Shown here piece by piece: positions 7,282 through 57,578 of a stretch of DNA of 64,000 nt (position 1 is its first letter; each line of letters starts with the position of its first letter). Both the position numbers and the translations under genes were made by a program. The notes under the pieces were generated by a model. That model was not told the origin of the DNA. It worked only from the letters and a program-made list of their open reading frames with translations, and did not search any database. The stretch comes from a virus (taxonomy: Duplodnaviria; Heunggongvirae; Uroviricota; Caudoviricetes), in the IMG/VR virus record IMGVR_UViG_3300028591_000080, positions 31,745-95,744 of that record; one strand, given 5' to 3'.

Positions 7282-9345
7282 TTATTTATTTTTAGTAAAA
7301 TCTACTTTATCATCTAATTCTTCTGGAGTTGGAAGATCTTCTGATTCATCTAGAAAATCAACATCCTCGTTTAATGTTACTGCATCTGGGTTAGTATTAT
7401 TGAAAGATTCAGCTGTTGGTAAATCAGTAAGATTTAAGTCTAGATTTAAATCGTCACCTTCACTAGCTGTTTCACCTTCAGAAGCTGGTGCTTCGTTAGT
7501 TCCACCAGCCTCACCTGTACCACCAGGAACATTTGCTGGCTCGGCATTAGCAGCTTCACCATTAGCAGCATCTAGAGCAGCTTGTTTAGCTTCCTCTTCT
7601 TTTTGTTTCTTAGCTTCAGCTTCAGCAGCTTTTGCTAATTTAATTTCTTCGTCTAGTACTTGAAGAATTTCATCTTCACCATAATCAACCATCTTATATA
7701 AATTCTTTAAGATAATTAATCTACTACTCTTTGTTTCAACATCTTGGAATAAAGCATTAGCAGTTGATACAGCATTTAAACGATTTGTTAATTTTTCTCT
7801 ATAATTAAGTTCTTCTTGAGAAACTGGAGGTCTCATCTTAATAGTATATCTATGTACATAAGATTTTAAACCTTTTTTAATACAATATAAATCTACTGCT
7901 GTATTAATACCTTGAATTAAAGCATTTTGAACTTGAGAAACTTTCTTTTGGAAAATTGTTGAAGTAATAGTTAATGCAGTACCACCATTGAATCCAGCAC
8001 CATCTTCAGTTAATCCAAAATATTGTTTAGGAATACCAAATGCACCGTAGAATCTATCATTCCATTTATCTAAGTCAGTTAAATTCTTTGGATCATAATC
8101 TCCACCTACAGTATCAACTGTGATAGCACCTTTACCATTCTTAGTATTATTATAAATCCAGTTTTCGATTGGACCTGGGCTATTATAATCTGAAGCATTT
8201 TTACCACTTAAGAAAGCACGTTTTTGTTCAAACATATCTTTTACTTGGTGTAATAATTGATTAGCTTTAGTTCTATCCATATTAGCTGTTTCAATAGAAA
8301 CAATTCTAAATACTGATGAACGAGTTAATCTTGCAAGTAATAATGCTGATTCAATAAGAGTTTTTTCTCTCCAAATCTTATAAACATCATAGAATAATGA
8401 TTTTCCTCTAATAACATCAAAAGCATAAGTTGTTGATTTTAAATTTGAACGATTCTTAGCATTCTTATCTTTAATGTCAGGTTCCATTATTAAATCAATA
8501 GTTTCTGGGAATCTTGATTGACCATCAGATAGATAAATATGAATATAATCTTCAGCGTCATGAAGTATAATATCATTTGATTTAACTTTATAATTAAATG
8601 ATCCACCACCATTTAATGCATTAGAATTTAAACCAGTATTAGCAGCATATGCATCTTGATTAGCTAATTGAGTAATATCATTTGGAGTTTCGACATATCC
8701 AAAAGTAATATCATTTTGATTTAATTCAAACATAGTAGCAGGATCTGGAACTAATTTTAATCTCCAACAGAATTCATCATTAGCATTCTTTAAATCTAAT
8801 TGAATAGTCTCATTTAAATGAGATTTAGCACTATACATATTTTGAATACTTTGTGAATTAAAAATTGTATTTGAAAAGTCAGAATTTCTTAAATTTTTTA
8901 AATAAATATCACCATATTTAACAAGATTAAATGCCCATCCAAAAATATTTTTATCTACATTCATAGTATTTAATACATAATTTACGAATTTACTAATTTT
9001 TGGATCATCAGATTCAGCTCAAACAATATGACCATTATCTCCAACTTCACAAACATTTTCTGTTAAAATTCTTGCAATAGCTGAAACTGATGCATCTTGG
9101 AACATTGTGTCTAATTGACTATACATATAATCTCTTGAATTTGAAATTTGTGTAAACTTTTCAAGTTCTGAGAAATTTACTCTATCTTCTAATCCACCTA
9201 AAATTAAAATGTCTTCTAACGTTTTATTTAAATCTACATCTAATCGAGTATTATCGTTATTATTAGGAGTCGCTTGAATTAGTGTTCCTACTAATTGAGA
9301 TGCTTGTTTTTTAATTTTTTTAATTTTGTTATCATTTTCTGGCAT
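7282..9345 (-). CDS. Portal protein (T4 gp20-like); 1 in-frame TGA at 9019
   Basis: ORFs 9019..9345 and 7282..8964 join in frame via GHIV-TGA-AESDDPK. Motifs 'KYGDIYL', 'LIESALLLARLTRSS' and 'YGAFGIPK'. 687 aa with an acidic tail. Confidence 0.88.
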
Positions 9346-9361
9346 TTTATTCTCCTAATTA

Positions 9362-11476
9362 TTATATACAAATTATTCCATTAGAAATTGCTATTGAATT
9401 TATAGCATCATCATCTATTGCAGTATCATCTAGGTCTCCATAATATTTTGGATTACCATATTCATCAACTTCAATATATTTTTCTTTAGACATTACATTT
9501 AATAGATTTTTTCCAAAATCATGTTTTTCAATCTCATTTTGACTTGTATTACTTGGTTTTGAAATTTGAACAGTTGTTTCAATTGAATCACCAAAATCAA
9601 ATGAACATTTTTCACCATTTTTACTAGCTGTTCATACTGCACCACAGACTGCATCGGCTTGGTCCTTAGAACCATATTTACCATTTTCAGGGTGGTTGAT
9701 GTGTCCATCAGCTTCACGTTCCAATCCTAATAACTCTTCAGTTAATAGTTTAGCTTTGTCATACATTATGAAACGGCGTTCATAAATTGCTGTTTTAAAA
9801 TAGTGATAAGGTAAACAAACTTTCTTTTTATTTTCTAGCGATGTTGTTCTATCTACTGATAATACTTCTGTTTCAAATCCATCAGCTTTTAATTCTTGTA
9901 AAAGAGTAGCAGATTGGTGAGTATCTGATGTAATCATTTTAATATCAAATCCATTATCTTTTAACCAATTTATAAATATTCTATGCTTTATTGAACTAAT
10001 ATGTGCGCCTCTAGGATTTTTAATTGAAACTGAGAAAGCTAATTTATAAATTAACATCTGAGATTCTACACTAGATTCTTGTAAAATTAATTTTGATAAT
10101 TGACTAAAATCATTTTCGATCATTTTAGATTTATCGAATGATTCATCTCTACCAGTTATTCATACGCCTGCAATACCAGTCATGTCTCCAGACTCAGATA
10201 AGTCTAAGTGAATAAATAATGGTTTTTCTTTGTCTTTATCACTAACTCTACTTAAATCAAAGTATTCTGAATATTGATGTAAATCATCTTCTCCATCTCC
10301 AATTTCAAGTATATCATTCAAGAATGGATTTTCATAATCAGTAGTTTTTGTTTTAACTAATCTTTCACCTGAAATATATTTTAAAGATGCTGCTGTTGCA
10401 ATACCAATGATAGAACAAATTGCTTCATCAAGGTTTAATTGGAATGTATCTAAGTATCCAATTGGAACTTGTCACATTGTATAATTTTTATTTCTATATT
10501 CATCAACTAATTCTGGAGTTGCATCTAATGGTAATAATTCATTAGCAAGAACTTTATCTCCAATAGCTACCCAGAATTTTTGAGGTGAATCTTTTCTCGG
10601 GTCAACTACCCATTGAGGTTCATCTACAATTAAAGTATTTTTACTTTCATTCTTTTGTTTATTTTGAATAAATTCTTCTAGGAAAGATTGTTCACTATCT
10701 TTTGAAGATGCGATAATATTTAATGTAGGTAAGTAGGTACCACGCATGAAACGTGATTTCATACGAGCATCTACTTGAGTAATAATTTTCATCATTCTCT
10801 TCTTAGACTTAACTGGGTCTTGAACAAGAGAGAAGTTAACTTCATCTGTAAAGTTAGCAAACAAAGCACGACCTATGATCTGATTATTACTTGAAGCACA
10901 AATAATTTCAATATGTTTATCAGTAACATATCTCATATTAGTTGTACCATGCATTTCACCATGACTCATAAACCATTCACTAGCTAAAAGCATTGAATTC
11001 ATTTTATCTAATGCGACACCTCTAGCATTTTCTAATGTAATATTCATCATTGAAATACTTAATTTATCAATACTTTGCATTCCATAATATTGATATGGAT
11101 CTCTTAAACAAAGTAATCTATATAATAAATATAATAAACAAATAACTGCTATAGTTGATTTACCTAAACCGATAGCTCCTGTAAATACTATAGTATTATA
11201 TTTTGTTGAAGTATTAGTTGGAAATATATCTTCTAAACATTTTTCTCAGTATGGGAATACTGTAAACTTACCTTCAGCATCATATAATGCATTTCCTAAA
11301 TATCGTTTGTCATGTAAGAATGTATGAATATCTACTGGAAATTCGTCCCATTCCATAGATTGTAATGAATCTAAAAGTTCAGATTTTCCAGTTTTAGAAT
11401 ATTCTTTTAAGATTTGTAAAACGACTTTTTGTTCTTCAGTTGAGAGTTTATTAAATTTTTCTTGATCAAAATTCAT
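9362..11476 (-). CDS. Terminase large subunit; 4 in-frame TGA (11246, 10472, 10160, 9632)
   Basis: Reading through gives Walker A 'TGAIGLGKS', Walker B 'NFTDE', nuclease 'IHLDLS..GD' and 'SKDQADAV'. 704 aa, ends at TAA 9362. Confidence 0.9.
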
Positions 11477-11513
11477 AATATTCTCCAATCTGGATATATT
11501 ATATATTATATAT

Positions 11514-11522: not shown

Positions 11523-11528
11523 TATTAA

Positions 11529-13061
11529 CTATACTGGTTGTTCTTCATCTTCTTTAGGAGGTTCAATAGGTTTTGAAGCTTCTTTATCAGCTTTTTCAGA
11601 TTCTTTTTGAGCAAGTTTATTAGCTCTTTCTGTCTCTTTAACAGCTTTTTGTAAATTCTTTTTATTTGGATCAACTTGTTGTTTAGTATTTTCTTCTTTT
11701 TGTTCAGCTTCAAGCTTATCAGCGTAAACAGGGTTAATATTAGAACCTTTTTGGAATTTACCTCTATTTTTACCATACTCATTAATAGCATCAATAAAGC
11801 TTTCATTTGAATCTAAACAATCTTGTAATGTTTCTTTATCTAATAAATCTTGATCAACCATTTCATCACTAGTAATTCCATATAATTTAGGGAATATTAA
11901 TTTTAAGAATAATTTTTGAGACTTTTCTGACATATAATGAATATAGTTATTAATAACTGAAGCAACTTTTAAAATTCAATCTCCATTATTTAAAACTAAT
12001 AAAGAGTGTTTACAACCACGACCTTGATCATCATTTGGATTTGCAATTCCTTTACCTTGTCCTGGGTCATGTGCTGAATCTAAAGTAGAAACACCTCTTA
12101 TAATATTCCAATGTGAAAAATGATATTTATGATCTGGACATGTACAATTTATTTGTAAATCAGCACTATTAAAAATTTTAGTTAATGCTTGAACAACAAT
12201 TTTATATTCTAATTTGAATTTATTATTTTTTAAAATTTTTGCTAGTTCAGCAATAACTCCATCCATTCTAACTGTAACTAAATATTCATCTGATTCTCCA
12301 ATTACAGGAATTTCTACCTCTAAAACATCATTTTTAAATAATTGATTCATATCAATTTTATTATATTGTTTTACTGTTCTTGCAATTTTTGATAATTTCT
12401 TTCGTTCAAATCTATTTTTTCCATATTTTTGATTTTTATATGGACCAGCATTTCTTGAAGTTGAAACTAATTGCATTCTAGTATCTTCGGTGAAAAATTG
12501 TTTAAATAAATCTCTTTCACCTTCTTTATGAATTTCAATTTTCTTACATTCAATAATTTCAAGATTTTTTGTTAATAAAATATAAAAATCTGAAGTACCA
12601 ACAGAATATTGAATAGCATTAATTCCTAATTTATTTAAATAAATTGATAAATATTCGAACCAAGCTTTATTTCTCTTACTATCGTTTACATCAAAAGCAT
12701 CGATTAGCTTATACATATCAATTAATTGTTCAATTTGAACGTTTTGTAATTGAGGTGCATTTAATATATCACAATTAGCATTTTGAAATTCATCATTATT
12801 TAAATTAATTCCATAGCTATTTAATATTTTATTAATAATATTTTTAGCTGACCAATCAAATAAATCAGAAGAGAAAATTAATGGATTAATATTAAAATCT
12901 AATGTAAATGCATAAGCACTTCCGATAGGAATATTTAAATTGTCTCTTTTTTGAAAATAATCGACAGCATCTAAATCAGAAGTAAAATGTGTAGTTGTAA
13001 AATCTAAATTTAAAATATCTTCTTCATTATTTATCCAAGAATATAACTGAATAAGTGCCAT
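11529..13061 (-). CDS. SWIM-type Zn-finger protein; 1 in-frame TGA at 11976
   Basis: CTCPD...GCKH motif. NNGD-TGA-ILKVASVINNYIHY continues in frame into 11529..11933. GGAG RBS before ATG 13061. Confidence 0.75.
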
Positions 13062-13180
13062 ATAATTCTCCACTAGACATCAAAAATTTACGCTCAGGAA
13101 GCGTTTTAATGTTTATTTGAATATTCATATATAAACGGTAAAAAACGCATTTTTACGTAATAAAATATTAATCGATCAGA

Positions 13181-13190
13181 TAATTTAGCA
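13181..13190 (-). promoter_or_regulatory. TGCTAAATTA motif (putative late promoter)
   Basis: Exact copy after a terminator and upstream of the SWIM gene. Confidence 0.6.
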
Positions 13191-13210
13191 ATAAGATAAC
13201 ATAAAAATAA

Positions 13211-13240
13211 AAAAAAAGATAATAGCTGAGCTATTATCTT
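13211..13240 (-). terminator. Intrinsic terminator
   Basis: AAGATAATAGC-tga-GCTATTATCTT hairpin with an adjacent A-tract, which is a U-tract on the minus strand. Confidence 0.75.
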
Positions 13241-13869
13241 CTGTATTGTGCTTTAAACTTTTCTAATTCCATTAATTCTTCTTGAGACATCTCGAAATCT
13301 GAATCTGGGAAGTCTGGAACATCATAAGTATCTGAATTAGATTGAACTGGAGCATCATAATAACTATCTAATCCACCAGCAGTTACAGCTTGTTGATTAT
13401 AACTTTCATTCATTCTTTGTTGATTTTGTGGAGCAAATACTGCATCACTCCATAAATCATCATCTAATTGAGGAGCTCTAGTTTGTTGAGGCTGAGGTTG
13501 AACTCTTTGAACTTGTGGTTGAGGATTTCTATTTACAGGTCTTTGTTTGACTTGAGGTTGAACAGGTTGTGGTCTTTGAACTTGTGTTCTTTGTAAAACA
13601 CTTTCATTTACCTTCTTTACTTCTGGTTCTTTTCTAACAATTTCAACATTTGAACCAATAGATTTTAATTTATTTTCAAAAGTACCTACTAAAATTAAAT
13701 AAGTATCAATTAAATCATTTAATACTTCTTCAACATCTTTTGTATCTGAGTACTCAGCTTTAATTCCATCAATATCAGCTTTTAATGTAGCAATTCTATC
13801 CCAAGCGTCTGAAATATATGTAGATAGGAAAATCTCTGGAAGTTTTTGTTTCTTTTCATTTAAAATCAT
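13234..13869 (-). CDS. Hypothetical protein with Q/P-rich linker
   Basis: 211 aa, AGGAG RBS, TTGTATTAT at 13902-13910. Confidence 0.75.
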   Translation of the reverse strand: MILNEKKQKLPEIFLSTYISDAWDRIATLKADIDGIKAEYSDTKDVEEVLNDLIDTYLILVGTFENKLKSIGSNVEIVRKEPEVKKVNESVLQRTQVQRPQPVQPQVKQRPVNRNPQPQVQRVQPQPQQTRAPQLDDDLWSDAVFAPQNQQRMNESYNQQAVTAGGLDSYYDAPVQSNSDTYDVPDFPDSDFEMSQEELMELEKFKAQYRR

Positions 13870-13918
13870 TTAAATTTCTCCTAATTATATCAATATATAA
13901 TATAATACAACTTTTTAA

Positions 13919-15268
13919 TTAGTTTTCTAAATTTTCTAATGATAGTTCTTTAGATAATACTTCGTTTTTTAAATCTTTTAATTTATCTAAATAACCTCTA
14001 TTTCTAAATTCTTTAAAACATAAATTTTCTAAAGAATATTCACCATTTTCATCACTCATACCTTTTTTACGTTCTTCATAGATATCTGTAATTAGCTGTT
14101 CAATTTCTTCAACAGATGGATTTTCAAGAATTTCTTTATATCTATTTTCATAAGGTTTAACTAATTCTTCAACTTGATCGAAATCTATATCTGGAATCTT
14201 AGCTTGAACTGGGTGAACAATCCAATCATTATCTTTTACAGAATAAATACCATTACTTCTTAATGGAGTATCATCTGTTTCAACATAAACTTCAACTGGA
14301 ATTCCATAGAAACTAATGTCCATCTTTCTATTAAATAAAGATTTATAAGCACCATATAATAATGGATATAAATCGTCTGGACAATCTAAATCATCAGTAT
14401 TAGCAATAATATGAATATCTAAATCTGAGTCTTTAGTATAATTATAACTTACATTAGAACCAACTAAAATAATATCTTCAACATCAATCTTAATTCCATC
14501 TTCTTCTAGATCAGATAAAAAATATTCAACAATTAAATTAATTTTATCTAAAACTTCATCTTTTAATTTTTCATCTTCATTAAATAATTTTGGATTTAAT
14601 GTTTCATGTTTTTCAATATCTTCATCTAATTGGTCTGATTTACCTTCCAATTGATCAGTCATGAATTTATGATTTTCTTGTCATTCATCTTCACTAAAAT
14701 CAACTTTATAATCAAACATTAAAGACTTAATTTGATATAAATATAAATTAAATAAATTTAATAGCGATTCTTTTACGCTATCATCTTGAGTTGTCTCAAT
14801 TTGTTTTCTTAATCCATATAATTTTGATTTAGCATTATTTTTGTCAATAAAAATTAAATCTTCATTTAATTTATCATTTAATTCATCGTGATCTTTTGGA
14901 TTAAATAATGTTATTTCAACATCAAATACATCATCGATAGTATCTAAAGAAAAATCAGTAGCAACTGGAGCTCAACCAGTATTTTCTTCTAATTCTTTAA
15001 ATATTACACTTAAATCTTTAAAATAATTAGACCAAGTACCACAGCCATTTAAACCACCACCAAGTCTAAATACATAGCGCTCAGTTTCGTGGTCTACAGT
15101 TCCTGGCTCACCTTTTTCTTTATAATATTTAATAGAATCTTCATCATATAAAACATAGTTAGAAGTTTTTTTTGCAGTTGGAGTTTTTAATTTTAATATT
15201 TCTTTTTTAATTTTCTCGATATTATCTTCTGGAGCGAGCTCTTCAAATAAATTTCTGAAAATATCCAT
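13919..15268 (-). CDS. Pol-beta-family nucleotidyltransferase-domain protein; 2 in-frame TGA (14972, 14681)
   Basis: 'ILVGSNVSYNYTKDSDLDIHI' is a GS...DxD motif. Three segments are in one frame; 449 aa. Confidence 0.78.
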
Positions 15269-17293: not shown

Positions 17294-19411
17294 TTAATCT
17301 AATGAATATTGTTTATTCCAAAGTGCACCATGTAAGTACTTACATAACTTGTCTGAACTATCTCCACCTTTCCATACCCAGAAGACAGCACCTTCTAGTT
17401 CAAGAGTTGGATAACTTGTTTTTTCATAATCTTGTAAATCACTATCTGTTACAATCATAACATTAGTAAATGTACTATTTCTAATTTGTGTGTATATTTC
17501 TGGCCAAGCGCTAGTTCCACCACTACCTTCATTTTTTGGAGTATCGTAAACTGAACTATCGAAATATTTATACTCTAAATCTAGAAGTCCATCATCTTGA
17601 TAAGCTTTTAATCCAGAACATAAAGCTCGTGCTTTATCAAAGTCTTCTTTATGCCAAGAACCAGATTGGTCAATATAAACTCTCATATATGGTTTCTTAT
17701 CATCAAGTCTACGTTTATCTTGGTGACCTTTTCTAATCATATTATTATCTTCAGCATGTCTATTCATAATTCTATATGATTTTATAGAAAGCTTATACTT
17801 TTCTACTTGCATTCCGATAAGTTTTTCGATATCACGTTTTAATTCAGCTGCAGTATAAACTGCTTGATATGCATCAGCTGAATTAGACTTCTTTTGAGCA
17901 CCAGAGTTCTTAATAATTTCTTTTTCTTCTTGATCGATTTCCATATTAGCAAATGGATCATTATTTAAAGCTGTTACTACAGAACCTCTCTTCTCTAAAT
18001 CTTTACTTATAGAGATTTGTAATATTTGACTTAGATCATTAATTCCTTGAAGAAGAATATCTTCAACTTTATCTGAATCCTCATATACATGATTTTCAGC
18101 ATCTTTTAAATCTTCTAAATCTTTCTTTAATCTATCTTTAGTTGATTTATCTAGTTTCTTATCAAATTTATTATTTTCTAAAACTTTTGAAATATGCTTT
18201 TGAAGTCTGTTTATTCTTCTCAATCTATCTTTAGCTTTAGCTTCATTTTTTTCACTAGGTAATTCTAGAGTATCATCATCTGCTGAATTGTCTTTTGGTG
18301 TATTTTCTTTTTCTTTATCGTTTGACTTTTCACCATTTTGATCTTGTGGATCTTTATTAGCTTTTGAATCTGAAGATTTATTATCTTTATCTGATTTATT
18401 TTTATCTGATTTTGTTTGACTAGACTTATTATCGCTGTCGTTACCTACTTCAAAATTATTTTCGTCACTATCAGATCCTGCCTGATGTTCTTTAGAATCT
18501 TGATCAGAGTCTGAACTACTATCTGAACTACTTTGACTACTTGAAGAAGAATCTCCACTTTGATCTTCTGAATCATCTGAGTCTTTAGAATCACCATTCT
18601 TTCCTTTTTGATTTTGGTTATCATCTGAATTATCTTCAGAATCTTCACCATCATCTAATCCACCAAATTCATTATCATTATCTTCATCACCTAAATCATC
18701 TAAATCCAAATCATCAATGTCAGTATTATCTAGGTCGTCTAAATCATCCAAATCGTCCTTATTTTGATTTTTACCTTTACCATTAGAATTATTATCTTGG
18801 TCCTCTAAATCGTCTAAATCTGAGTCATCTAGGTTATCTAAATCTGAATCATCAAAGTCATCTAGATCGTCTAAATCGTCTAGATCGTTTCCGTTTCTAT
18901 TCTTTGGAGGCTTTCTATTATTTGAATTGTCAAGATTATCTAAATCATCTTCATCTTCAAAGTCACCACCATCATCTGATCCGCCATTATTTTCATCTGA
19001 TTGATCATCTTTTTTATTCTTTTTATTCTTTGATTGACTGCTACCACTATTTCCACCATTATTGCTGTCATCATCGTCGTCATCATCATTTTCTTCTTTA
19101 GATGGAGTATCACCAAGGTCGATTTGTTTTTGTTTTTTCATTAAGTCTTCTGGATCATCAAAATCCATCGACATTCCAGCTCCACTTTGATTATCTGGAC
19201 TTAATACTGGTAAGTCAGGATCTATCTCCATTGGTGGTAAATCATCTGGCATTGGAGGCATTGCACCTCCACTAGCACCTTCCATACCATCACCTTTAGG
19301 TTGCTTTTTTTGTAATATTTGAACTAATGCATCTGCATATCCTTGTAATGCATCAAAAGTTCCAACTGTTGCTTCGTTATCTACTTTCTTTAATAAATCA
19401 TCTTTTTTCAT
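17294..19411 (-). CDS. vWA (MIDAS) domain protein with long D/N/S-rich disordered region
   Basis: C-terminal 'VYIDQSGS', 'GGT' and 'IVTD' MIDAS elements; DDLDDLD repeats. Confidence 0.8.
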   Translation of the reverse strand: MKKDDLLKKVDNEATVGTFDALQGYADALVQILQKKQPKGDGMEGASGGAMPPMPDDLPPMEIDPDLPVLSPDNQSGAGMSMDFDDPEDLMKKQKQIDLGDTPSKEENDDDDDDDSNNGGNSGSSQSKNKKNKKDDQSDENNGGSDDGGDFEDEDDLDNLDNSNNRKPPKNRNGNDLDDLDDLDDFDDSDLDNLDDSDLDDLEDQDNNSNGKGKNQNKDDLDDLDDLDNTDIDDLDLDDLGDEDNDNEFGGLDDGEDSEDNSDDNQNQKGKNGDSKDSDDSEDQSGDSSSSSQSSSDSSSDSDQDSKEHQAGSDSDENNFEVGNDSDNKSSQTKSDKNKSDKDNKSSDSKANKDPQDQNGEKSNDKEKENTPKDNSADDDTLELPSEKNEAKAKDRLRRINRLQKHISKVLENNKFDKKLDKSTKDRLKKDLEDLKDAENHVYEDSDKVEDILLQGINDLSQILQISISKDLEKRGSVVTALNNDPFANMEIDQEEKEIIKNSGAQKKSNSADAYQAVYTAAELKRDIEKLIGMQVEKYKLSIKSYRIMNRHAEDNNMIRKGHQDKRRLDDKKPYMRVYIDQSGSWHKEDFDKARALCSGLKAYQDDGLLDLEYKYFDSSVYDTPKNEGSGGTSAWPEIYTQIRNSTFTNVMIVTDSDLQDYEKTSYPTLELEGAVFWVWKGGDSSDKLCKYLHGALWNKQYSLD

Positions 19412-20643
19412 TAAATAGCTCCATATCTCATCTCATAGTCTTCTTTAGAAAGAGTTCCATAAGAAGTTTTATTTGCAATAACATTTGATGCAGCGATTCG
19501 ATTTAAAATCTCTTCTAAATCTTTTGAAGAAAGATTCTTATAAATATCTTTAACGTTATTCATAATTTCATTATAAGCATTCTTATATTCTTGAGTGTGG
19601 AATTTTCTTTGAACGTCTACAACAGGTTTTTCAGCGATATTACCTAATAAGTATTTAATAATAGATGCAGTAATAGATTTTTGTTCTGGAGAAGTAATAT
19701 AGATTTTTTCTGATTTACCATCAACTAAAATTTCTCCAAAATATAATTTATCTGTTAATTTAGACTCACCAATTTTTCTTAAAGCACTTTTTAATTGGTC
19801 ATCTGACTTATCCTTTAATACCTCAAGAATTCTATTTATAATAATTTGTGTTCTTCTATATTTTACACCTAATGAACGATAATATTTTGATTTCTTTATT
19901 TGTTCAATACCATGAGCTCCAGATTTATCTTTTGTACCAAATGTTGATGTTGGAGCATCAATTCTAGCATAAGATGAATTTTTAAAATAAGATCTATCTA
20001 TCATGTTTTTTGGAGCTGCATTTTTAATATTATTAAGTACGTTTTGTCTAACTTGTTCTAACTCTTGTAAACTTTTTTCATACATTTCTTCAAGAGTTAA
20101 TTTCATCCAAGATTCTCTATGGTCTTCTGTAACTAATCCGCTAATAGTTTTACCATTTAAAACCATATAACGAACAGTATTTTTATCGATCTGTGAATAT
20201 CTAAAATTAGAAATTTCATCATCCATAATTATATTTAAAAAATCTTGAAACGAATTACTATTTGCTAAGTCTTTTCAAGAATTAGTACCTTTAACTTTTT
20301 TTGCACTTGCATTAAGTTTATTAATCATTCTTAATTGATGCATCATTAGATTATGAGATAATTCATGTCTAAGAAGTACATCTAATTGGTCAAAAGTTTG
20401 AGGATTCGTTAAGAATCCTCTACTTATGTAAATGACTGGTTTTGTTACATCTGTTGAAATTGCAGCAGTAAAATCTGGATCATCTTGAATTTCAACGATA
20501 TTTAAATCATAATAAAGTAAACGTTTAGCAAACTTACTATGTTTTTTATTAATTAATAATTTAATTATCTGATTTTTCCAAGTTTTTTCTTCTTGAGTCA
20601 TATAATCAGTTGCAGATTCACGTAGATTATTAAGTTTATGCAT
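19411..20643 (-). CDS. HExxH metallopeptidase (DUF2201-like); 1 in-frame TGA at 20275
   Basis: 'LLRHELSHNLMMH', then after the TGA 'NIIMDDEISN', in frame with 19411..20226. 410 aa. Confidence 0.75.
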
Positions 20644-23807: not shown

Positions 23808-23832
23808 AAAAAACGTGAAATGTCACGTTTTT
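23808..23832 (-). terminator. Intrinsic terminator after topA
   Basis: AAAACGTGA-aatg-TCACGTTTT hairpin. Confidence 0.7.
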
Positions 23833-39984: not shown

Positions 39985-39988
39985 ATTT

Positions 39989-39998
39989 TGCTAAATTA
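39989..39998 (+). promoter_or_regulatory. TGCTAAATTA motif (putative late promoter), the only plus-strand copy I found
   Basis: Exact copy 38 nt upstream of ATG 40036. Confidence 0.6.
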
Positions 39999-40035
39999 TA
40001 TACATATTATATTTTATAGATCGCGAGATACTATT

Positions 40036-44346: not shown

Positions 44347-44358
44347 TGGAGTGTTATT

Positions 44359-45330
44359 ATGATATATGTAGATAATTATGTTATAGATAAACCAATAATA
44401 GAAATATTAGATGAGATAAAAATATTAATTCACAATGGCAAGTTATCTTCATATCGTAAAACAGGCTCTGGAATTAAAGTAACGTGTCCAGTGCATAATA
44501 ATGGTCGAGAACAAAAACCATCTTGTTATATAAGAGAATCAGATGGAGTGTATCACTGCTTTGCTTGTTCAAGTAAAGGACCATTTTATACATTTGTGGC
44601 TCATTGCTTCGAGACTTCTGAAGAAGAAGCAAAACAATGGTTAATTCAAAAATATGGTGTAAAAACTAGTGAGAAGTTTATTATAGGTGACGATATTGAA
44701 CGAAATTATAATTATTCAAAGTATCAAGCTTATATCGATGAAAATATTCTAAAAGAATTTAAGGATTGGACACCATATTTTAAAACCAGAGGTATTACTA
44801 GAGAAACTGCAAAAAGATTTAATCTTAAATATGATGCTGAACACAGACTTGCAGTTTTTCCATGTTATGATATTAAAGGTAATTTAGTTATGTTGCACAC
44901 TCGTTCGATAGATAGAAAAACATTTTGTCTAGACAAGGACGTTCCGAAACCTGTTTTTGGATTATATAATATTATAAGAGATGGTGAAACTAAAGCAGTA
45001 ATAACTGAAGGTCCATTTGATGCTTTAAAAGCAAGCCAATTTGGAATTCCAGGATGTGCAACACTTGGAAATTTATCACCATCACAAATTGAACAAATTA
45101 ATGAATCAGGAATAAAAACATTGTATATTATGTTCGATAATGATGTTCATGGTAGAGAATTTGCTGAGACATTAAAAAAGAATTTATCTAAAAGTATAAT
45201 TTTTTATGAACCAGAATTACCTCTTGACAAAAAAGATGTCGGAGAATTAAACTATGAAGAATTTTGGAACGCTATAAATAATTGTACAAATGAGATAAAA
45301 CGTAAAAAATCACAAATTATCATTGTATAA
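44359..45330 (+). CDS. DNA primase (CHC2 Zn finger plus TOPRIM)
   Basis: 'CPVH...CFAC', 'TEGPFDA', 'FDND' and 'KDVGE'. Confidence 0.92.
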   Translation: MIYVDNYVIDKPIIEILDEIKILIHNGKLSSYRKTGSGIKVTCPVHNNGREQKPSCYIRESDGVYHCFACSSKGPFYTFVAHCFETSEEEAKQWLIQKYGVKTSEKFIIGDDIERNYNYSKYQAYIDENILKEFKDWTPYFKTRGITRETAKRFNLKYDAEHRLAVFPCYDIKGNLVMLHTRSIDRKTFCLDKDVPKPVFGLYNIIRDGETKAVITEGPFDALKASQFGIPGCATLGNLSPSQIEQINESGIKTLYIMFDNDVHGREFAETLKKNLSKSIIFYEPELPLDKKDVGELNYEEFWNAINNCTNEIKRKKSQIIIV

Positions 45331-45373
45331 TTAATTGTGAACAAAAAATTTATAAGGAGATATTTTATTAATT

Positions 45374-46291
45374 ATGGCAGAAATTAAGACTTATGCACAA
45401 TACAAGAAAATGGTAGAGGAAAACGAAGCTAGAAAGGCTGCTCAAGCTAACGGTGATTCAGGTAATGCTGGTCCTGGTATTAGATTTTTAAAGTTTGAAG
45501 GTAATGTTAAGAATGCATTAGTAAGATTTGCATTTGATTCTGTTGATGACATTGAGTTTAATACAGTTCATGGTACTGTATTCCAAAGTCAAGGTTATAC
45601 AGGTTTAAAGAACAGATTTACAAGTATTAAATGTTTAGATGAAGGTTGTCCATTCTGTAAGGCAGCTAGAGCTGAAGGTGGACACAAGGTAATTAAGAAG
45701 AGAGAAATCAAGGTTTATATTAAGATGTTAGTATCTTATATTGATCCAGTAACTGGAGCTTTATCAGAACCAGTTCCAACTATTTGGGAAAGAAATGCAG
45801 GATTCATTGATCAATTAGATGCTAAGCGTGTATCTTTAGGAAATGCACCATTAAGTAGTTTCTTATTTACATTAACTAAGGTTAAGACTGCTGATAAGAC
45901 AACTTATCAAATGGATGTAGCTTTACCTCAAGTATTCCCAGACACGTCTATTCCAAAGGATTTCAGTGCATTTGCAAACTTCAGAACTAAAGGATTTACT
46001 TATGTAGAAAAGACAGCTGAAGAAATGGAAGAGTTTATTGCAACTGGTAAGTTTAGTGCTCCAGCTCAAACAAACCAAGCAACTCAAACTCCACAAACAG
46101 TTCAAACAGCTCAAACTAATGTAAATCAAAATGTAGCTTCTCAACCAAATACTGCTTCTCAACAAGCAGTTCAAACAGAAACTCAAGTTCAACAAGCTCA
46201 ACAAGCTCAAACTGTTCAACAACCTGCTCAAACAAACCCAACAGTAACTACTAATAATAGTGGACGTAATAATTTCAATTGGGGTTTCTAA
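45374..46291 (+). CDS. Single-stranded DNA-binding protein (gp32-like, Zn)
   Basis: H...C-x4-CPFC, a Q/T-rich tail, and position between primase and polymerase. Confidence 0.7.
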   Translation: MAEIKTYAQYKKMVEENEARKAAQANGDSGNAGPGIRFLKFEGNVKNALVRFAFDSVDDIEFNTVHGTVFQSQGYTGLKNRFTSIKCLDEGCPFCKAARAEGGHKVIKKREIKVYIKMLVSYIDPVTGALSEPVPTIWERNAGFIDQLDAKRVSLGNAPLSSFLFTLTKVKTADKTTYQMDVALPQVFPDTSIPKDFSAFANFRTKGFTYVEKTAEEMEEFIATGKFSAPAQTNQATQTPQTVQTAQTNVNQNVASQPNTASQQAVQTETQVQQAQQAQTVQQPAQTNPTVTTNNSGRNNFNWGF

Positions 46292-46317
46292 TTTAAATTT
46301 AATATTAAATTAATTTA

Positions 46318-46350
46318 AAGAGTGGATTATAAGTTATTAAGTCCACTCTT
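46318..46350 (+). terminator. Stem-loop after SSB
   Basis: AAGAGTGGAT...GTCCACTCTT inverted repeat. Confidence 0.55.
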
Positions 46351-46372
46351 AATTTATAAATAAGGAGACTTT

Positions 46373-48217
46373 ATGGATATTTTAGGATTATTTGATGATA
46401 TAGATCTAAATAAAAATAAGAAAAAATCTATTAACGATTTATTAGCTTTAATTAAAGCAAAAGAAGCTACTGAATCTGATATAAAAACTGTATTAAAATC
46501 TAATAAAATCTCTATTGATGAAAGAATTTCAATTATTCATGAACGTGTTTTAAAAGTTTTAGGAAAACAAAAGAAAAATATTGTTGTTATCTCAGATAAA
46601 ACTGAATTTCATAATTATATTCTTGAAGCTTGTAAGGTTGGTGTATTAGCTGTCGATACCGAAACTAATAACTCATTGGATCCAATTACTTGTAAAATAA
46701 TTGGTTTATGTTTACATTATCCAGGCGGTAAACAAGCATATATTCCTATTAACCACAGAGACCCACATACAAAAAAGCGTTTAGACTGGCAATTAACGGA
46801 AAAAGATATTGCTGATGAATTTAATTTCTTAGCTGAATTACGTTCTAAATGGCAACCAGAATTTACTGCTCCATCTCAAGTTGAAACACAACAATATTTA
46901 GAATATTGGATTGAACATAAATTAAAAAGAAATGAAGATGTTCCATGTCCATTAATTGTTATGGCTAATGGTAAATTCGATAGAGAAGTTATTTATTGTA
47001 CTTGTGGAGTATTAGTTCCAGTCGATTACGATACTCAACTTGCAGCAAGATTAATCGATGAGAATGATTTAGCAGGTTTGAAATACTTATATACTAAGTT
47101 TATTGATAAAACACAGTCTAAATATAATCTAGAAGGTTTATATTTAAATACTTTCTATGCTGATTCTGATCCAAATATTTTTGCATTATACGCTGCGACA
47201 GATGCATTAATGACAAATAAAGTTTGTGAATTCCAATTAAAAACTTTATTAGCTGAAGGAAACGAGCGTTTATTTAAATTATTTACAAGAGTAGAAATGA
47301 ATATATTATTAGCAACAGCAGCTCAAGAATTAGTTGGAATTAAAGTTGATGAAGTATACGGTAAAATGTTAAAGAAGAAATATACTAGATTAGTAGAACA
47401 ATTGGATGAAAAGGTTGAAGTTGAAATGGCCCAATATAAACCACTAATTGACCAATGGAGATTAACTCCAGAAGCTAATGAAAAGACTATTGTATATGTA
47501 CCAAAGAAAACAAAATTATCTTTAAGTGATATTAAGAAAAAATATCCAAATGTTGATGAAGAAGGTAATAGATTTAAATATGGTGCAACTAAATCTGAAC
47601 AATTAAACTGGCCAATTCCATTAAGTTCTCCAGTTCAATTATCTATTTTATTATATGACGTCTTAAAAATGCCAGTTGTGGATAAAGAAAATCCTCGTGG
47701 TACTGGTGGTGATATTCTAGAAGAAATGAATGAATTAAAACCTACAAAATTAATTGGTTATATTCTAGAACGTCGTGGTTATATGAAATTAATTTCAACT
47801 TATATTGATACTATTCCAATCTTATGTAAGCATTGGCCAGATGGTCGTATTAGATTCCACTTAAATCAATTAGGAACTGATACAGGAAGATTTTCTTCTG
47901 GTGGTGATATTGCTTATGTGGATAATTATGGAACTGATGAAGAGGAAAGAGTAGAAGTTCCTGGAATTAATATTCAGAATATTCCAAGTGGTAGTACAAA
48001 TATTAGAACATTATTTGTTGGTGAAACTACTTATGGTGAAAAAGATTTTACAGATAATTTTGAAATTAATGAATATGAAGAATTAGAAACAAATAATGGT
48101 TATAAATATTGTAAAGATTTAACTCAGGATGATTTATTAGTTACAGATGAGGGTTTATTCAAGATTAAAGAAATAAGCTATTCTAAACAAAATAAGACTT
48201 ATTCTATAAGTATTTAG
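46373..48217 (+). CDS. polA: Family A DNA polymerase, N-terminal half (3'-5' exonuclease plus thumb), with Hint-like C-terminal tail
   Basis: ExoI 'VDTET', ExoII 'NGKFD', ExoIII 'YAATD', 'TGRFSS' and 'NIQNIP'. Ends at TAG. Confidence 0.9.
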   Translation: MDILGLFDDIDLNKNKKKSINDLLALIKAKEATESDIKTVLKSNKISIDERISIIHERVLKVLGKQKKNIVVISDKTEFHNYILEACKVGVLAVDTETNNSLDPITCKIIGLCLHYPGGKQAYIPINHRDPHTKKRLDWQLTEKDIADEFNFLAELRSKWQPEFTAPSQVETQQYLEYWIEHKLKRNEDVPCPLIVMANGKFDREVIYCTCGVLVPVDYDTQLAARLIDENDLAGLKYLYTKFIDKTQSKYNLEGLYLNTFYADSDPNIFALYAATDALMTNKVCEFQLKTLLAEGNERLFKLFTRVEMNILLATAAQELVGIKVDEVYGKMLKKKYTRLVEQLDEKVEVEMAQYKPLIDQWRLTPEANEKTIVYVPKKTKLSLSDIKKKYPNVDEEGNRFKYGATKSEQLNWPIPLSSPVQLSILLYDVLKMPVVDKENPRGTGGDILEEMNELKPTKLIGYILERRGYMKLISTYIDTIPILCKHWPDGRIRFHLNQLGTDTGRFSSGGDIAYVDNYGTDEEERVEVPGINIQNIPSGSTNIRTLFVGETTYGEKDFTDNFEINEYEELETNNGYKYCKDLTQDDLLVTDEGLFKIKEISYSKQNKTYSISI

Positions 48218-48227
48218 GAGAGGTATT

Positions 48228-49415
48228 ATGAAGATTAAAACAAGAATTAGACGAAAAATCGTAGGTTCAGACTTCTCAGCTCAAGAACCTCGTTTAACAT
48301 GTCACTTATCTGGTGAGGAAAAAATGTTAAATGCATACTTAGAAGGTAAAGACTTATATGCTGTTATTTCTGCTGGTGCTTTAAAGAATAATTATGAAGA
48401 TAATCTTGAATTTTATCCTGAAGGTACTGAAATAGAAATAGATGGAAAGAAAATTATTGCTGGACATAAAACTCATAAAAATTTACAAGGTAAAGCTAAT
48501 AGAACTATTGGTAAAAAACTTTTATTAGCATCTACTTATGGTATGGGTGCTGCAAGAGCTGGTATGACAATGGGTAAATCAAAAGAGGAAGGTCAAGAAC
48601 TACTTGATAACTTCTTCGCAGAATTCAGTAAAGTAAAAGAAGCTATTGATTATTCAAAAGAGAGTTTAAAAAAGTACGGTTATGTTGAAGACTGGTTCGG
48701 TAGACGTAGACATTTACCAAAATATTTCTTACCTAGATTCGAAATTAGGTATGAGGATCCAACTAAAAATAAAACTGAGACATTTAATCCAATTTTAGGT
48801 TGTAAAGATAGAGAATTAGTTACTGATAAAATGAAATCTTATTTAGCTAAAGCTGAAGAATGTAAAGGTGATAAAGCTTTTGAAAAGCTCCAACAACAAG
48901 CTAGAAAAGATGGTTATATTTTAATATCAAATACTGGAACTATCGCACAATGTGAAAGACAATGCTTTAACGCAAGAATTCAAGGTGGTGCTGCTACTTT
49001 AACAAAGATAGCAATGGTAAATATTTATTTTGATGAAAAATTAAAAGAATATGGTGCTAGATTAGTTTGTTCAGTACATGATGAAATATTAGTTGAATGT
49101 CTAGACTTCTATAATAAAGAAGTAGAAGAAAGATTACCACAAATTATGATTGATTCAGCTAAACCTTATATGAAAGTTCCAATGAGTTGTGACCCATATA
49201 ATGTTCAACGTTGGTATGGTGATGAGTTAGCTAACCATATTTTAGATGATTTTAAGAAATTAGAGTCTAAAGGTAAGTCTTTCGAAGAAGCAAAAGATAT
49301 TATCCTTGAAGAAAATTGTGAATTACCTAAACAAGCAGTAATAGATGTTTTAACTAATAAAAAAGATGTTATTGAATGGGATCCAGATGACCCTAAAGTT
49401 TGGGAAGACAAATAA
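48228..49415 (+). CDS. polA: Family A DNA polymerase, C-terminal half (motifs A, B, C)
   Basis: 'DFSAQEPR', 'R...K...LASTYG', 'IQGGAA' and 'VHDE'. Own GGAGAGG RBS and a different frame from the N-half. Confidence 0.9.
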   Translation: MKIKTRIRRKIVGSDFSAQEPRLTCHLSGEEKMLNAYLEGKDLYAVISAGALKNNYEDNLEFYPEGTEIEIDGKKIIAGHKTHKNLQGKANRTIGKKLLLASTYGMGAARAGMTMGKSKEEGQELLDNFFAEFSKVKEAIDYSKESLKKYGYVEDWFGRRRHLPKYFLPRFEIRYEDPTKNKTETFNPILGCKDRELVTDKMKSYLAKAEECKGDKAFEKLQQQARKDGYILISNTGTIAQCERQCFNARIQGGAATLTKIAMVNIYFDEKLKEYGARLVCSVHDEILVECLDFYNKEVEERLPQIMIDSAKPYMKVPMSCDPYNVQRWYGDELANHILDDFKKLESKGKSFEEAKDIILEENCELPKQAVIDVLTNKKDVIEWDPDDPKVWEDK

Positions 49416-50607: not shown

Positions 50608-50609
50608 AA

Positions 50610-51104: not shown

Positions 51105-51631
51105 TGATAGATATTACTAATGCTAAAGACGAAGTAAATAAAGTCGTAGATCAATTAGCTGAATCAGTTGCAGATCTTACTAATGAAATGACTGCAGGAT
51201 TAGATAAATTGATTAAAAAAGTTGCTCTTGGTGTTGATTTAATGACCAACGCTGAAATAAGAGAAACTATGGCTAAGATCAGTGTTGAAGCTTATTCTAT
51301 TGGAATTTTAAAAGAACAAAATTCTCTTAGAGATGCTTGTGCAACTGCCTTATATAAAGAAGCAGCAGCACGTTCATTCTCAGTTACAGCCGGTTCTGTA
51401 GAAGCAAAAAAGAATCAATCTGTTCTAGATACTTTAGATAGACAAGCTGTTTCAATATTGTATAATACTTCGACAAACTTATTAAAAACTAAGTGCGATG
51501 AAGCACATAGAATTGTAAGTGTATTAAGTAATATTTTGATCTCAAGAGCTGCTGAAGCTAAGAATCAATATAGCCCACGTAGTGAATTAGATCAAATGCC
51601 TTATAATAATGATGAAAATGGAGATAATTAA
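51104..51631 (+). CDS. Helical hypothetical protein (possible recombination mediator)
   Basis: 175 aa, coupled between RecU and RecA. Confidence 0.65.
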   Translation: MIDITNAKDEVNKVVDQLAESVADLTNEMTAGLDKLIKKVALGVDLMTNAEIRETMAKISVEAYSIGILKEQNSLRDACATALYKEAAARSFSVTAGSVEAKKNQSVLDTLDRQAVSILYNTSTNLLKTKCDEAHRIVSVLSNILISRAAEAKNQYSPRSELDQMPYNNDENGDN

Positions 51632-52896
51632 TGGCTAAAAAGGAAGCAAAAACATTTGCAGAAGCGGTTGCAAATATAAATTCCGCTAATAAAAAATGAA
51701 AAGTTCTTTCATTTGGTGATCCATCTAGAGATTTAAAGAAATTACCTTTAAAATCTCTTCCAATTGATTTATCATTTAAAGGTGGTTTACCTTATGGACA
51801 ATTAGTTACTGTTTCTGGTGTAGAACATTCAGGTAAATCTTCTTACGCTGCAGCAATGATGGCAAGATATCAAGAAGAAAATCCTGGAAAAGTTTGTCTT
51901 TGGATTGATGGAGAAAATACTCTATTAACTCAAGGTGCATATTTTAAATCTGATTATGGTCTATCTTATGATGAAAGTTGTTTCTTAAGGTATGATACTA
52001 CTGGTAAAGCTGCTGAGGAAATTTTTTCAGATGTTATCGATTTACAAGGATATGATGAAATTGGTATGATTGTATTAGATTCATCTAAAGCTTTAATTTC
52101 AATGGCGGATTTAGATAATGAATTTGTTAAAGATAATGGTCAAAGAGCTTCTATTGCTAAGTCTATGGGTAAATTTGTTAGAGCAATGGTTCAATATCTT
52201 CCTAAGAGAAATAATATTTTATTAGTAATAAATCAAGTAACTATTGAAAAAGAAATGTTCTCAACAACATATACTGAATCTGGTGGTTATTCATTAAGAT
52301 TCTTCCCAAGTGTTAAGATTAGATTTGGTACACGTACATTTACTGCTCCAACTGCTACAGGTTTATTAAAAACTGATATTAGTTCATCTAAAGCTCAAAG
52401 TGACTATGCCGATAAGGTTAATGGAATGCAATTCCATTATGTTGTAGTAAAAAATAGAACTAATATTATGACAAATGCTGGTGGATTTATTACAGTTAAA
52501 TTTGGAAAAGGAATTGATAGAGTATATGACTTCTTAGAGGTTATAGAGACTGCTAAAATTTTATTCCATCCATCTCCTAGAACAGAAGCATTAGTTGATC
52601 CAGTAACAGGTGAAATTTTAAAAGATAGAGTTACAGGAAGAGATTTACAATTTTCAAAACATGCTGAATTAGAAAATTATCTTGAAGAAAATAAAGATTT
52701 CTTTGATGAATACTATTTCCAAGTTTTAGATTTCTTATGTGGTAAGAAAGAAAACTTAAATTTATTAGATCAAAATGTCGTAGCTGAATTAATGGATCAA
52801 GAAGCACAGATTATGAAAGATATTCCAACAGAAGCCGCAGCTCTAGCTGCTGATGGACTTACTGAAGAAGATTTACAAGATGTCCAATCCGTTTAG
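51631..52896 (+). CDS. recA: RecA/UvsX-like recombinase; 1 in-frame TGA at 51697
   Basis: ATG 51631 after GGAG. After the TGA come 'GGLPYG' and Walker A 'GVEHSGKS', then 'IDGE', 'VLDS', 'INQ' and 'KNR'; 421 aa. Confidence 0.9.
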
Positions 52897-53642: not shown

Positions 53643-53674
53643 TTTGTTGTATTATATTATATCGAGGTGATAAT

Positions 53675-54703: not shown

Positions 54704-54716
54704 GTGGTGATTAATT

Positions 54717-56455: not shown

Positions 56456-56546
56456 GTTTTATTTTAGACCTGATAGAAAACCAATCAAATCTAAAAAACG
56501 TTCCTAGAAACGTTATTTTATATTAAATTTTATATGAGGTGATTCA

Positions 56547-57578
56547 GTGGAAACACAAAATAATAGTCCGAATGAAGAAAAAGTTGGAGAAGTAGTCGAA
56601 AAAACTGAATATGAAAAATTTATCGATAAATTACTTGAGTCTAAATGGTCTTATTCAAAAATAGATTGTTTTAAAAGCTGTGGATTTAAATTTAAATTAA
56701 AGTATTTAGATAAGAACTTTGTATACAGTGGAAGTATTGCAACAGAGTTTGGTACAGCAATTCATAAAGCAGAAGAATCAATTGGAAATTATATAATAAA
56801 AAATGAACCTATTAATTATATAAAAATAAAAAATAAGTTCATGATTGATTGTATAAAAGTAAAAAAGAGATATCCAAATGATTGGATAACTAAAGATGAG
56901 TATTCAGGTAAAGACTATGAAACAAAATATCAAGATTATATTCATAAAAATATGTTTTATTTAGAAAAATATCTAAAAGATAATCCAAATTTAGAAATAG
57001 TTGGATCAGAAGTTCCGATTAATTTTAAATTTGATGATACTTGGACATTTACAGGATCAATCGACAGACTATATCGAGATAAAACTACAGATAAGTATAT
57101 AATTGAAGATATAAAATCTTGGCCTAATATTGAGAAGCATAAAGATGAATTAGCAACTCCACTTCAATTTGTAGTTTATTCATTAGCATTAGCAAAAATG
57201 AAGGAAAAAAGCACTGATGATATTTCTTGTCAATATTACCTTCCGATCTCAAATGAGTTAGCTAGTGCTGGACATGGTAAATATATTGAAAAAGGAACAG
57301 CTAAATTAAAATCATTATTTGAAAAAATATTAGCTCGAGAATTTAAACCAGCTCCAAAACCATTATGTCATTGGTGTGAATTCTGTAGAACAAATGAAAG
57401 TGCACCAAATAAATCAAAATGGTTATGTCCTTATGCAAGTGTTTGGACAAGAGAAAGACCAGCCAATTGGTCAGAATTTAATTTTACAACTTTGGAAGAA
57501 TATCCAAAAATCTTAAATCAATATAGGTTGCAACATGACTTACCGGTTTTGCCTAGTGAGTCAGAAAATAAAAAATAG
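56547..57578 (+). CDS. PD-(D/E)xK RecB/Cas4-like exonuclease
   Basis: 'SYSKI...C', 'GTAIH', 'GSIDR', 'EDIKS', 'QFVVY' and 'CHWCEFC...C'. Confidence 0.85.
   Translation: METQNNSPNEEKVGEVVEKTEYEKFIDKLLESKWSYSKIDCFKSCGFKFKLKYLDKNFVYSGSIATEFGTAIHKAEESIGNYIIKNEPINYIKIKNKFMIDCIKVKKRYPNDWITKDEYSGKDYETKYQDYIHKNMFYLEKYLKDNPNLEIVGSEVPINFKFDDTWTFTGSIDRLYRDKTTDKYIIEDIKSWPNIEKHKDELATPLQFVVYSLALAKMKEKSTDDISCQYYLPISNELASAGHGKYIEKGTAKLKSLFEKILAREFKPAPKPLCHWCEFCRTNESAPNKSKWLCPYASVWTRERPANWSEFNFTTLEEYPKILNQYRLQHDLPVLPSESENKK

Follow-up and report, generated by a model that had tools for sequence, protein, structure and literature searches.

Uneven use of TGA as a tryptophan codon in a 230-kb phage genome and a probable change of code during infection

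How does a phage come to write tryptophan with TGA in some of its genes while most of its other genes avoid that codon? The question is raised by a 64,000-nucleotide stretch of DNA (the window; bases 31745-95744 of the 230,252-bp virus record IMGVR_UViG_3300028591_000080), which belongs to a genome of 28% GC with a CheckV rating of complete. The original prediction, made from the letters of the window, held that TGA is sparse there, that its use is skewed by gene function and that packaging and late functions would depend on a code switch induced by the phage. Having followed TGA through the whole genome and its relatives, we conclude that the phage probably switches TGA to tryptophan during infection by means of its own tRNA(UCA), in a host for which TGA is a stop codon, and we put the probability of this reading at about 0.75. 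The dependence of the late genes on a tRNA made by the phage is well supported but indirect.

TGA as a sparse tryptophan codon

Genes were called with our own open reading frame (ORF) caller, for which the genome's long ORFs served as the training set. Under code 4, in which TGA is tryptophan, this gave 288 genes and a coding density of 0.913, compared with 0.847 under code 11 (the standard code) and 0.811 under code 15, in which TAG is recoded. The 288 genes end at TAA (220) or TAG (68) and none ends at TGA. A search for an excess of TGA near C termini found none, which speaks against TGA as an occasional stop in this phage. Standard-code annotation of such genomes goes wrong, and here it produces 29 extra gene fragments.

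On the evidence of alignments with homologues, TGA is a tryptophan codon in this phage. In the large terminase subunit, compared with 24 homologues, TGA codon 81 aligns to W in 24/24, and codons 339, 443 and 619 align to W/L, W/Y and W/F/Y, respectively. Of seven TGAs in a radical SAM enzyme, three (157, 191 and 242) align mostly to W, and codon 220 of the sigma-like protein considered below is W in 31/31 homologues. When TGA sites were compared, with Trp masked, with orthologues from relatives that use the standard code or recode TAG, the commonest partner was W (17/47 aligned), followed by Y, L, I, V, G and F, and the profile was the same as that of TGG sites, Gly excepted. A reading of TGA as Gly, Ser or selenocysteine (Sec), the last two of which had first been suggested by the long extra arm of the phage tRNA(UCA), was rejected because TGA sites align to Trp and other aromatics and because Rfam scores the molecule as an ordinary tRNA.

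A first pass over the genome gave 119 TGA and 655 TGG codons, and curation of the start codons brought these numbers to 108 and 654. Ten of the first 119 TGAs had been included because the called start was too early; they belong to a ribosome-binding site such as GGAGTGA or to the promoter TGTGATATAAT. These ten speak for the notion that in-frame TGAs stem from over-long ORF calls or from chance, but as an account of the whole set we regard it as next to impossible, because the remaining TGAs lie inside Pfam and PHROG domains and at conserved Trp columns, because their heterogeneity among genes exceeded that of all 5000 permutations and because the pattern is repeated in the orthologues of two other genomes. 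The single TGAs that the original prediction had noticed near the N termini of RecA and SbcD are codons 23 and 39, and since both lie inside the Pfam domain, we take them to be real.

The depletion of TGA is real. Genome-wide, TGG outnumbers TGA by 654 to 108 and TGA occurs in 50/288 genes, so that only 14-15% of Trp codons are TGA, whereas A-ending codons make up 73-96% in the A/G pairs of Lys, Glu, Gln, Leu (TTR) and Arg (AGR). The excess of TGG in spite of the AT bias, first noticed in the window, is a property of the whole genome, and all of the per-gene counts behind that observation were reproduced. Nor is TGA spread evenly over the genes. The genome-wide chi-square for heterogeneity among genes was 457, compared with 225 +- 20 in permuted data and a maximum of 300 in 5000 runs, and the virion block has more TGA (37 TGA/105 TGG; counts are given in this order throughout) than the replication block (9/82, p=0.002). 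The span from 7282 to 57578 of the window, with 18 TGA and 120 TGG and with TGA in 10/47 genes, shows by itself a weak skew (per-gene heterogeneity, permutation p=0.13), its minus-strand late block standing at 13/52 and its plus-strand replication block at 5/68 (odds ratio 3.4, p=0.025). The window shows the skew far less clearly than the whole genome does. An apparent bias of TGA toward the 5' ends of genes (p=0.008) was gone once the starts had been curated, and with curated starts no such bias was seen in any of the three code-4 genomes tested, this phage included.

TGA use by predicted promoter class

Three promoter motifs were found by k-mer enrichment in upstream regions, and each gene was assigned to the class of the nearest upstream motif in the direction of transcription. 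The early motif consists of an A-rich UP element, GTATTTACA, 17 bases and TGnTATAAT, and is, to judge by its sequence, a strong sigma70/sigmaA-type promoter. It occurs in 19 near-identical copies, 18 of them at 151-175 kb and one at ~187 kb, which precede small genes, mostly at a fixed distance of 58-66 nt from the gene start. The region of these small genes has the highest GC3 (GC content at third codon positions) of the genome, and the early operons, led by 19-23 sigma70-type promoters, comprise 49 genes. The late motif, TGCTAAATTA, has 30 copies, often right after a terminator, and precedes the sheath, protease, baseplate, tail-fibre and other genes of the virion block. A candidate middle class is defined by ATATTGTAT[AT]AT, which is found before replication genes, the terminase gene and others.

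TGA use rises with promoter class. The early operons hold 1 TGA and 96 TGG, the middle operons 44 and 271 and the late operons 58 and 229 (20% TGA); without a radical-SAM gene cluster to which we return below, the middle operons stand at 15/266 (5%). Late operons differ from early operons with an odds ratio of 24 (p=3e-7) and from middle operons, the cluster excluded, with p=7e-8, and gene-level Mann-Whitney tests concur. Among the 97 Trp codons of the early genes, 0-1 are TGA and none is credible as a sense TGA, the other A/G pairs of these genes being 56-96% A-ending. The single TGA in question lies in gene g173, four codons before its TAG stop, and g173 may be the one gene of the genome that still ends at TGA. 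A natural control is provided by the sole plus-strand gene with a late promoter, which carries three TGAs amid TGA-free neighbors. At this gene a terminator is followed by TTGCTAAATTA at 39989, which places the true start downstream of the called TTG.

The genome encodes a candidate decoder. Its RNA genes comprise eight tRNAs, including tRNA(UCA), one transfer-messenger RNA (tmRNA) and one ROOL RNA. The tRNA(UCA) gene, found by both ARAGORN and Rfam, lies outside the window and specifies a molecule of 96 nt with an Rfam tRNA score of 57.6 bits, a G73 discriminator and a 7-bp acceptor stem. Its extra arm is long, with the usual Trp anticodon, CCA, in the loop. Directly upstream of the gene, a TTTGTATTAT motif and a degenerate form of the TGCTAAAT motif occur, so that tRNA(UCA) may own a promoter of the middle or late type. 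A search among the phage genes for a release factor and for a tryptophanyl-tRNA synthetase (TrpRS) found neither.

To see whether the skew extends beyond one genome, we can turn to the phage's relatives. Its terminase belongs to a family of >1400 proteins, and in a survey of 33 terminase-centred loci codes 4, 11 and 15 were intermixed within the clade. Four large IMG/VR relatives were compared whole: G001 (223 kb, code 4, 396/418, tRNA(UCA) present), G002 (232 kb, code 4, 435/490), G003 (159 kb, standard code, 22 TGA stops) and G005 (144 kb, code 15, 220 in-frame TAG codons, tRNA(CUA) present). Among orthologues defined as reciprocal-best matches (median identity ~42%), the genes that bear TGA here coincide with those that bear it in G001 (odds ratio 13.8, p=4e-6) and in G002 (odds ratio 19, p=2e-7). 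The orthologues of late-class genes in these two genomes have 70-72% TGA, and those of early-class genes 0-7%. The replication block from the DnaB helicase to the polymerase is TGA-free in all three phages. In G005, in which TAG is the recoded codon, the difference runs in the same direction (15% vs 8% of Gln codons, p=0.014). In several related terminases on other contigs (P0014, P0016, P0019, P0020, P0072 and P0076), intein, LAGLIDADG or HNH domains are present and the protein is longer by 100-350 residues; inteins thus invade the terminase in this clade.

The host is most likely a low-GC Firmicute with TGA as stop. SigmaA-type early promoters, a ROOL RNA and standard-code sister phages point toward a standard-code host of this kind, and a Shine-Dalgarno motif precedes 88% of the genes. 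A related phage contig was binned with a Firmicutes metagenome-assembled genome (MAG) of ~0.9 Mb and 26% GC that has release factors 1 and 2 (RF1 and RF2), the latter with an SPF motif, although binning is weak evidence. Compared with cultured phages, the terminase reached at most 34% identity, with matches spread over many host phyla; it was not found in three candidate MAGs, to which the tmRNA and tRNA region of the phage gave generic tRNA matches only.

Would a code-4 host, for which TGA is natively tryptophan, explain the data as well? Low and uneven TGA would then be due to expression level or to a recent change of host, and the lack of TGA stops in the genome and of a C-terminal TGA excess would be as expected. 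We consider such a host very improbable. The near absence of TGA from the early genes stands against it, given the A-ending preference of their other codon pairs, as does the fact that the phage brings its own tRNA(UCA). Phages of code-25 hosts carry TGA in ~90% of their genes (Borges et al., bioRxiv 10.1101/2021.08.26.457843), compared with 17% here; one sister phage ends genes with TGA while another recodes TAG, and the only MAG linked to a related contig is the one with the SPF-bearing RF2. The predicted combination of a standard-code host with late functions that need a code switch is supported in part: it would fit the TGA-free early genes, the phage tRNA(UCA) and the standard-code and TAG-code relatives.

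We favor a switch of TGA to tryptophan during infection, which would work as follows. Genes translated before tRNA(UCA) builds up would have to be free of TGA, and purifying selection would keep them so; these would be the 49 early-operon genes and most of the replication genes. Genes translated later would tolerate TGA, and in them strong AT mutation pressure would turn TGG into TGA. We would count among them the virion, packaging and tail-fibre genes behind TGCTAAATTA, the sigma-like gene, a homing endonuclease gene and a radical-SAM/sugar cluster adjacent to the tail fibres. Suppression is probably costly, and the most abundant late proteins appear to avoid TGA: the orthologues of the major head protein have 0 TGA/4 TGG in G001 and likewise in G002, and 0 TAG among 18 Gln codons in G005, and the tail tube is nearly free of recoded codons. 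Both the order in which the promoter classes fire and the time at which the tRNA accumulates are here things that we infer.

A number of observations count against this reading. The names early, middle and late were derived from motif type and gene content, not from expression. The extra arm of tRNA(UCA) is oddly long, and its charging with Trp is deduced. Four pairings of TGA with Gly occur in standard-code or TAG-recoded orthologues, compared with 0/238 at aligned TGG sites; they come from three sites (g024 codon 87, g020 codon 294 and g039 codon 123) and are probably alignment noise at variable positions. The partition is not absolute, as single TGAs occur in RecA, SbcD and a few more genes that are not in late-promoter operons, and the radical-SAM cluster sits behind a middle-type motif rather than behind TGCTAAATTA. 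Finally, a search for an endolysin (Amidase_2, Amidase_3 and GH25) found none, and the lysis cassette was not located.

TGA-saturated genes and the sigma-like candidate

The functional split between packaging or late genes and replication genes, which the original prediction had drawn, holds for the virion and replication blocks, but it misses half of all TGAs. These lie in fourteen mostly accessory or mobile genes with 53 TGA and 6 TGG (90%), compared with 55/648 in the other 274 genes. All fourteen are outside the window, and all but the baseplate-wedge-like g010 fall outside the virion and packaging classes. Eight of them form the radical-SAM/sugar cluster: four match radical SAM proteins weakly, one is UDP-glucose-dehydrogenase-like and the rest have no assigned function. 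Alginate-lyase-like genes lie nearby, and the products of the cluster may synthesize or modify a sugar of the virion or host surface. The other TGA-saturated genes are the gene for a GIY-YIG homing endonuclease with its two neighbors, an SprT-like gene, g010 and one tail-module gene without an assigned function. No holin-like membrane protein was found among the fourteen.

Where did these genes acquire so much TGA? One answer is that they arrived recently from heavily recoded relatives, so that the bimodality of TGA use reflects gene flow and not regulation, and to this we give even odds. The radical-SAM cluster is absent from five relatives, two of which are complete genomes, and has counterparts of 55-80% identity on a further two phage contigs (L110 and L111) that are rich in TGA throughout (43/2 and 53/6); a tail-fibre gene stands at the start of one of these contigs and a phage glycosyltransferase gene on the other. 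An origin of the cluster in a code-4 bacterium was rejected, since the homologues in bacteria, spread over many phyla, reach only 35-47% identity, while the close copies are on phage contigs. The GIY-YIG gene is a mobile element, and for g023, g214, g216 and g253 neither G001 nor G002 has a reciprocal-best orthologue. The core late genes of this phage, moreover, have only 10-25% TGA, although 70-100% is tolerated in relatives and the level in the two code-4 relatives is ~70%. Against recent arrival, the codon use of the fourteen genes is like that of other late genes except for Lys (AAA 87% vs 79%, p=0.0009), and no donor was found. Import would in any case need a recipient that decodes TGA, and it thus complements a code switch during infection and does not replace it. 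The fourteen genes are best read as modules that would share the gene pool of the heavily recoded relatives.

A second answer is that TGA has been positively selected in certain genes as an adaptive gate, which blocks their translation until the code has switched. A TGA-laden sigma-like gene would then place the switch ahead of late transcription, and possibly harmful genes, the homing endonuclease gene among them, would be kept silent early. Several features invite this idea. The fourteen genes reach 90% TGA while their neighbors are low; the GIY-YIG gene has 4/0, 3/0 and 5/0 in three phages, which matches the intron endonuclease that is preferentially recoded in Agate phages (Borges et al.); and the sigma-like gene, three of whose six Trp codons here are TGA, is all TGA in two relatives (5/0 in G001 and 3/0 in G002), with TGA from codon 3 onward. 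Yet there is no 5' enrichment of TGA in any of the three code-4 genomes. The level of 90% is the one expected from base composition and equals that of the other A/G pairs (73-96%), so that positive selection is not needed to explain saturation. Conservation as Trp is, if anything, lower at TGA sites than at TGG sites (36% vs 52%, p=0.06), and the sigma assignment rests on Z scores of 5-7. We consider an adaptive gate rather unlikely. The avoidance of recoded codons by abundant late proteins and the lack of a 5' bias make a pattern that is equally expected from AT pressure wherever TGA is tolerated. The 5', C-terminal and conservation results fit a drift from TGG to TGA, and they neither require nor exclude a gate; of the predicted translational gate, as opposed to a neutral code, what stands is the rise of TGA with promoter class, but the data do not distinguish a gate from tolerated drift.

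If any protein is truly gated, the best candidate is the sigma-like one. Its family is kept across the clade. It has no Pfam or PHROG match, and the sigma label given to it by the original prediction lacks confirmation. An AlphaFold 2 (AF2) model with a predicted local distance difference test (pLDDT) score of 80.5 was compared with known structures. With VIA-align, ~20 sigma region-2 chains were among the top 50 matches of the N-terminal domain (Z 5-7.3), including chain 7d7d_F of the T4 late-transcription complex (Z 7.1), although helical folds often reach such Z by chance; Foldseek found nothing in the PDB at E<=0.001. The model is suggestive only of a sigma fold. A more far-reaching reading, which we think improbable, is that a protein encoded by so TGA-laden a gene cannot be made before tRNA(UCA) works, that the code switch lies upstream of late transcription, with translation of the sigma-like protein timing the TGCTAAATTA regulon, and that TGA-written modules pass only between phages equipped with the decoder. 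If it were true, tRNA(UCA) would be a compatibility key for the exchange of genes such as the homing endonuclease and the radical-SAM/sugar cluster.

Selected genes of the window and the features mentioned above are collected in Table 1. Pfam and PHROG bear out most of the predicted gene names, the exceptions being the sigma-like candidate and the "late-type nuclease" (the plus-strand gene with a late promoter), neither of which has a family match, so that the latter label is likewise unconfirmed. The clamp-loader-like ATPase gene, which is not in the table, has 0/4.

Table 1. Features of the window and of the rest of the genome, with their TGA/TGG counts. Coordinates are window positions unless marked as genome or locus positions; orthologue counts are for G001 and G002, in this order.
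Feature	Coordinates	Strand	TGA/TGG	Remarks
Major head protein (475 aa)	2637..4064	-	no Trp codon	PHROG 138, 1.7e-18
Head maturation protease	4101..6104	-	1/3	PHROG 207, 3.6e-24; behind TGCTAAATTA; just outside span 7282-57578
Portal protein	7282..9345	-	1/5	Pfam Portal_T4, 1.4e-31; TGA codon 109 is W in standard-code and TAG-recoded orthologues
Large terminase subunit	9362..11488	-	4/5	PHROG 2 and 9; homologues carry PF27249; orthologues 8/3 and 7/3
Two late-operon genes without assigned function	11529..15268	-	1/4 and 2/2	Orthologues 10/4 and 14/1 in G001, 9/2 and 6/1 in G002
211-aa gene between the two	13234-13869	-	TGA-free	
Late-operon gene	19411..20643	-	1/2	Orthologues 2/2 and 5/2
Topoisomerase I (TopA)	23831..25711	-	0/6	Pfam Topoisom_bac, 4e-94
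Sigma-like candidate	29395..30222	-	3/3	TGA codons 17, 84 and 220; behind ATATTGTATTAT motif
SbcD-like phosphoesterase	33149..34201	+	1/2	Pfam Metallophos, residues 3-198; TGA codon 39 aligns to W in G003 and G005
Thymidylate synthase (ThyA)	34392..35243	+	0/7	Pfam, 2.6e-72; orthologues 0/9 and 0/6
U32-family protein	38884..39972	+	0/4	Pfam Peptidase_U32, 2.8e-9
Plus-strand late-promoter gene within replication block	39988..41643	+	3/7	TGA codons 190, 244 and 490; no Pfam or PHROG match
DnaB helicase, primase, 305-aa gene, split family-A polymerase	43009..49415	+	0/16 together	Pfam DnaB_C, Toprim/Zn_ribbon_DnaG, DNA_pol_A; DnaB 0/1, primase 0/3, PolA parts 0/6 and 0/4
RecA	51631..52896	+	1/1	Pfam RecA, residues 8-231; PDB RecA alignment, residues 5-231
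PD-(D/E)XK exonuclease	56547..57578	+	0/8	Pfam PDDEXK_1, 4e-22
Eight-gene radical-SAM/sugar cluster (TGA-saturated)	genome 104214-111393	-		Adjoins tail fibres
g173, early-operon gene	genome 156954-157169			TGA four codons before TAG stop
tRNA(UCA)	genome 2900-2995	-		
ROOL RNA	L001:1356-1973			Full-length, 252 bits; adjoins tRNA array
tmRNA	L009:13754-14128			86 bits; 24-residue tag ending in AALA
Gene-free stretch under code 4	genome 152987-154480			1.5 kb
Gene-free stretch under code 4	genome 175354-177233			1.9 kb

Relation to known recoded phages and to T4

In phage T4, late transcription depends on the late sigma factor gp55 and the late promoter TATAAATA. The present phage resembles T4 in having a short AT-rich late promoter, TGCTAAATTA, before its virion genes, a T4-like portal and a small helical protein whose N-terminal domain is like sigma region 2 and matches chain F of 7d7d. 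It differs in that this protein is not similar to gp55 in sequence, its fold match (Z 7.1) being in the range of unrelated helical proteins, and in that the late sigma factor of T4 is not gated by stop codons.

Mycoplasma and Spiroplasma phages grow in hosts that have reassigned TGA. With phages of TGA-reassigned hosts, such as those of code 25, the present phage shares TGA as a sense codon throughout its annotation. In those phages, however, ~90% of genes contain TGA and no partition by gene class is expected, whereas 83% of the genes avoid TGA here.

A closer parallel in mechanism is offered by the TAG-recoded crAss-like and Lak phages, which likewise combine a late-only reassignment of a stop codon, a suppressor tRNA of the phage and a standard-code host. 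For crAss-like phages, TAG recoding has reportedly been proved by metaproteomics. They differ in that TAG becomes Gln and that their hosts are Bacteroidota, although one member of the present clade, G005, does use code 15.

The idea of a code switch in mid-infection has already been published by Borges et al. (bioRxiv 10.1101/2021.08.26.457843), who described large gut phages of standard-code hosts in which TGA is Trp or TAG is Gln. In those phages, recoded structural and lysis modules are scattered over the genome, suppressor tRNAs are present, replication genes are variably in standard code and codes differ among close relatives; in the Sapphire clade a mean of 26% of genes is recoded, and a bias toward lysis genes is a key feature. 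With the code-4 clades of that study (Jade, Sapphire and Agate) the present phage has in common a gut genome of ~200 kb, TGA as Trp, a phage tRNA(UCA), scattered recoded structural modules with largely standard-code replication genes, a recoded homing endonuclease, close relatives of codes 11 and 15 and recoding of a minority of genes. It differs in that recoding, at 17% of genes and 14% of Trp codons, is below every reported clade mean, that the RF1/TrpRS "code change module" of the Jade clade was not found and that its strongest hot spot is the radical-SAM/sugar cluster beside the tail fibres. The known mechanism is left unchanged by this phage, which adds a complete, lightly recoded 230-kb member of rumen type to the known class of code-switching phages. 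Since three promoter classes can be read from its sequence, the codons of each gene can be set against its predicted timing, and together with its heavily recoded, standard-code and TAG-recoded relatives it forms a graded series for how recoding spreads through a genome.

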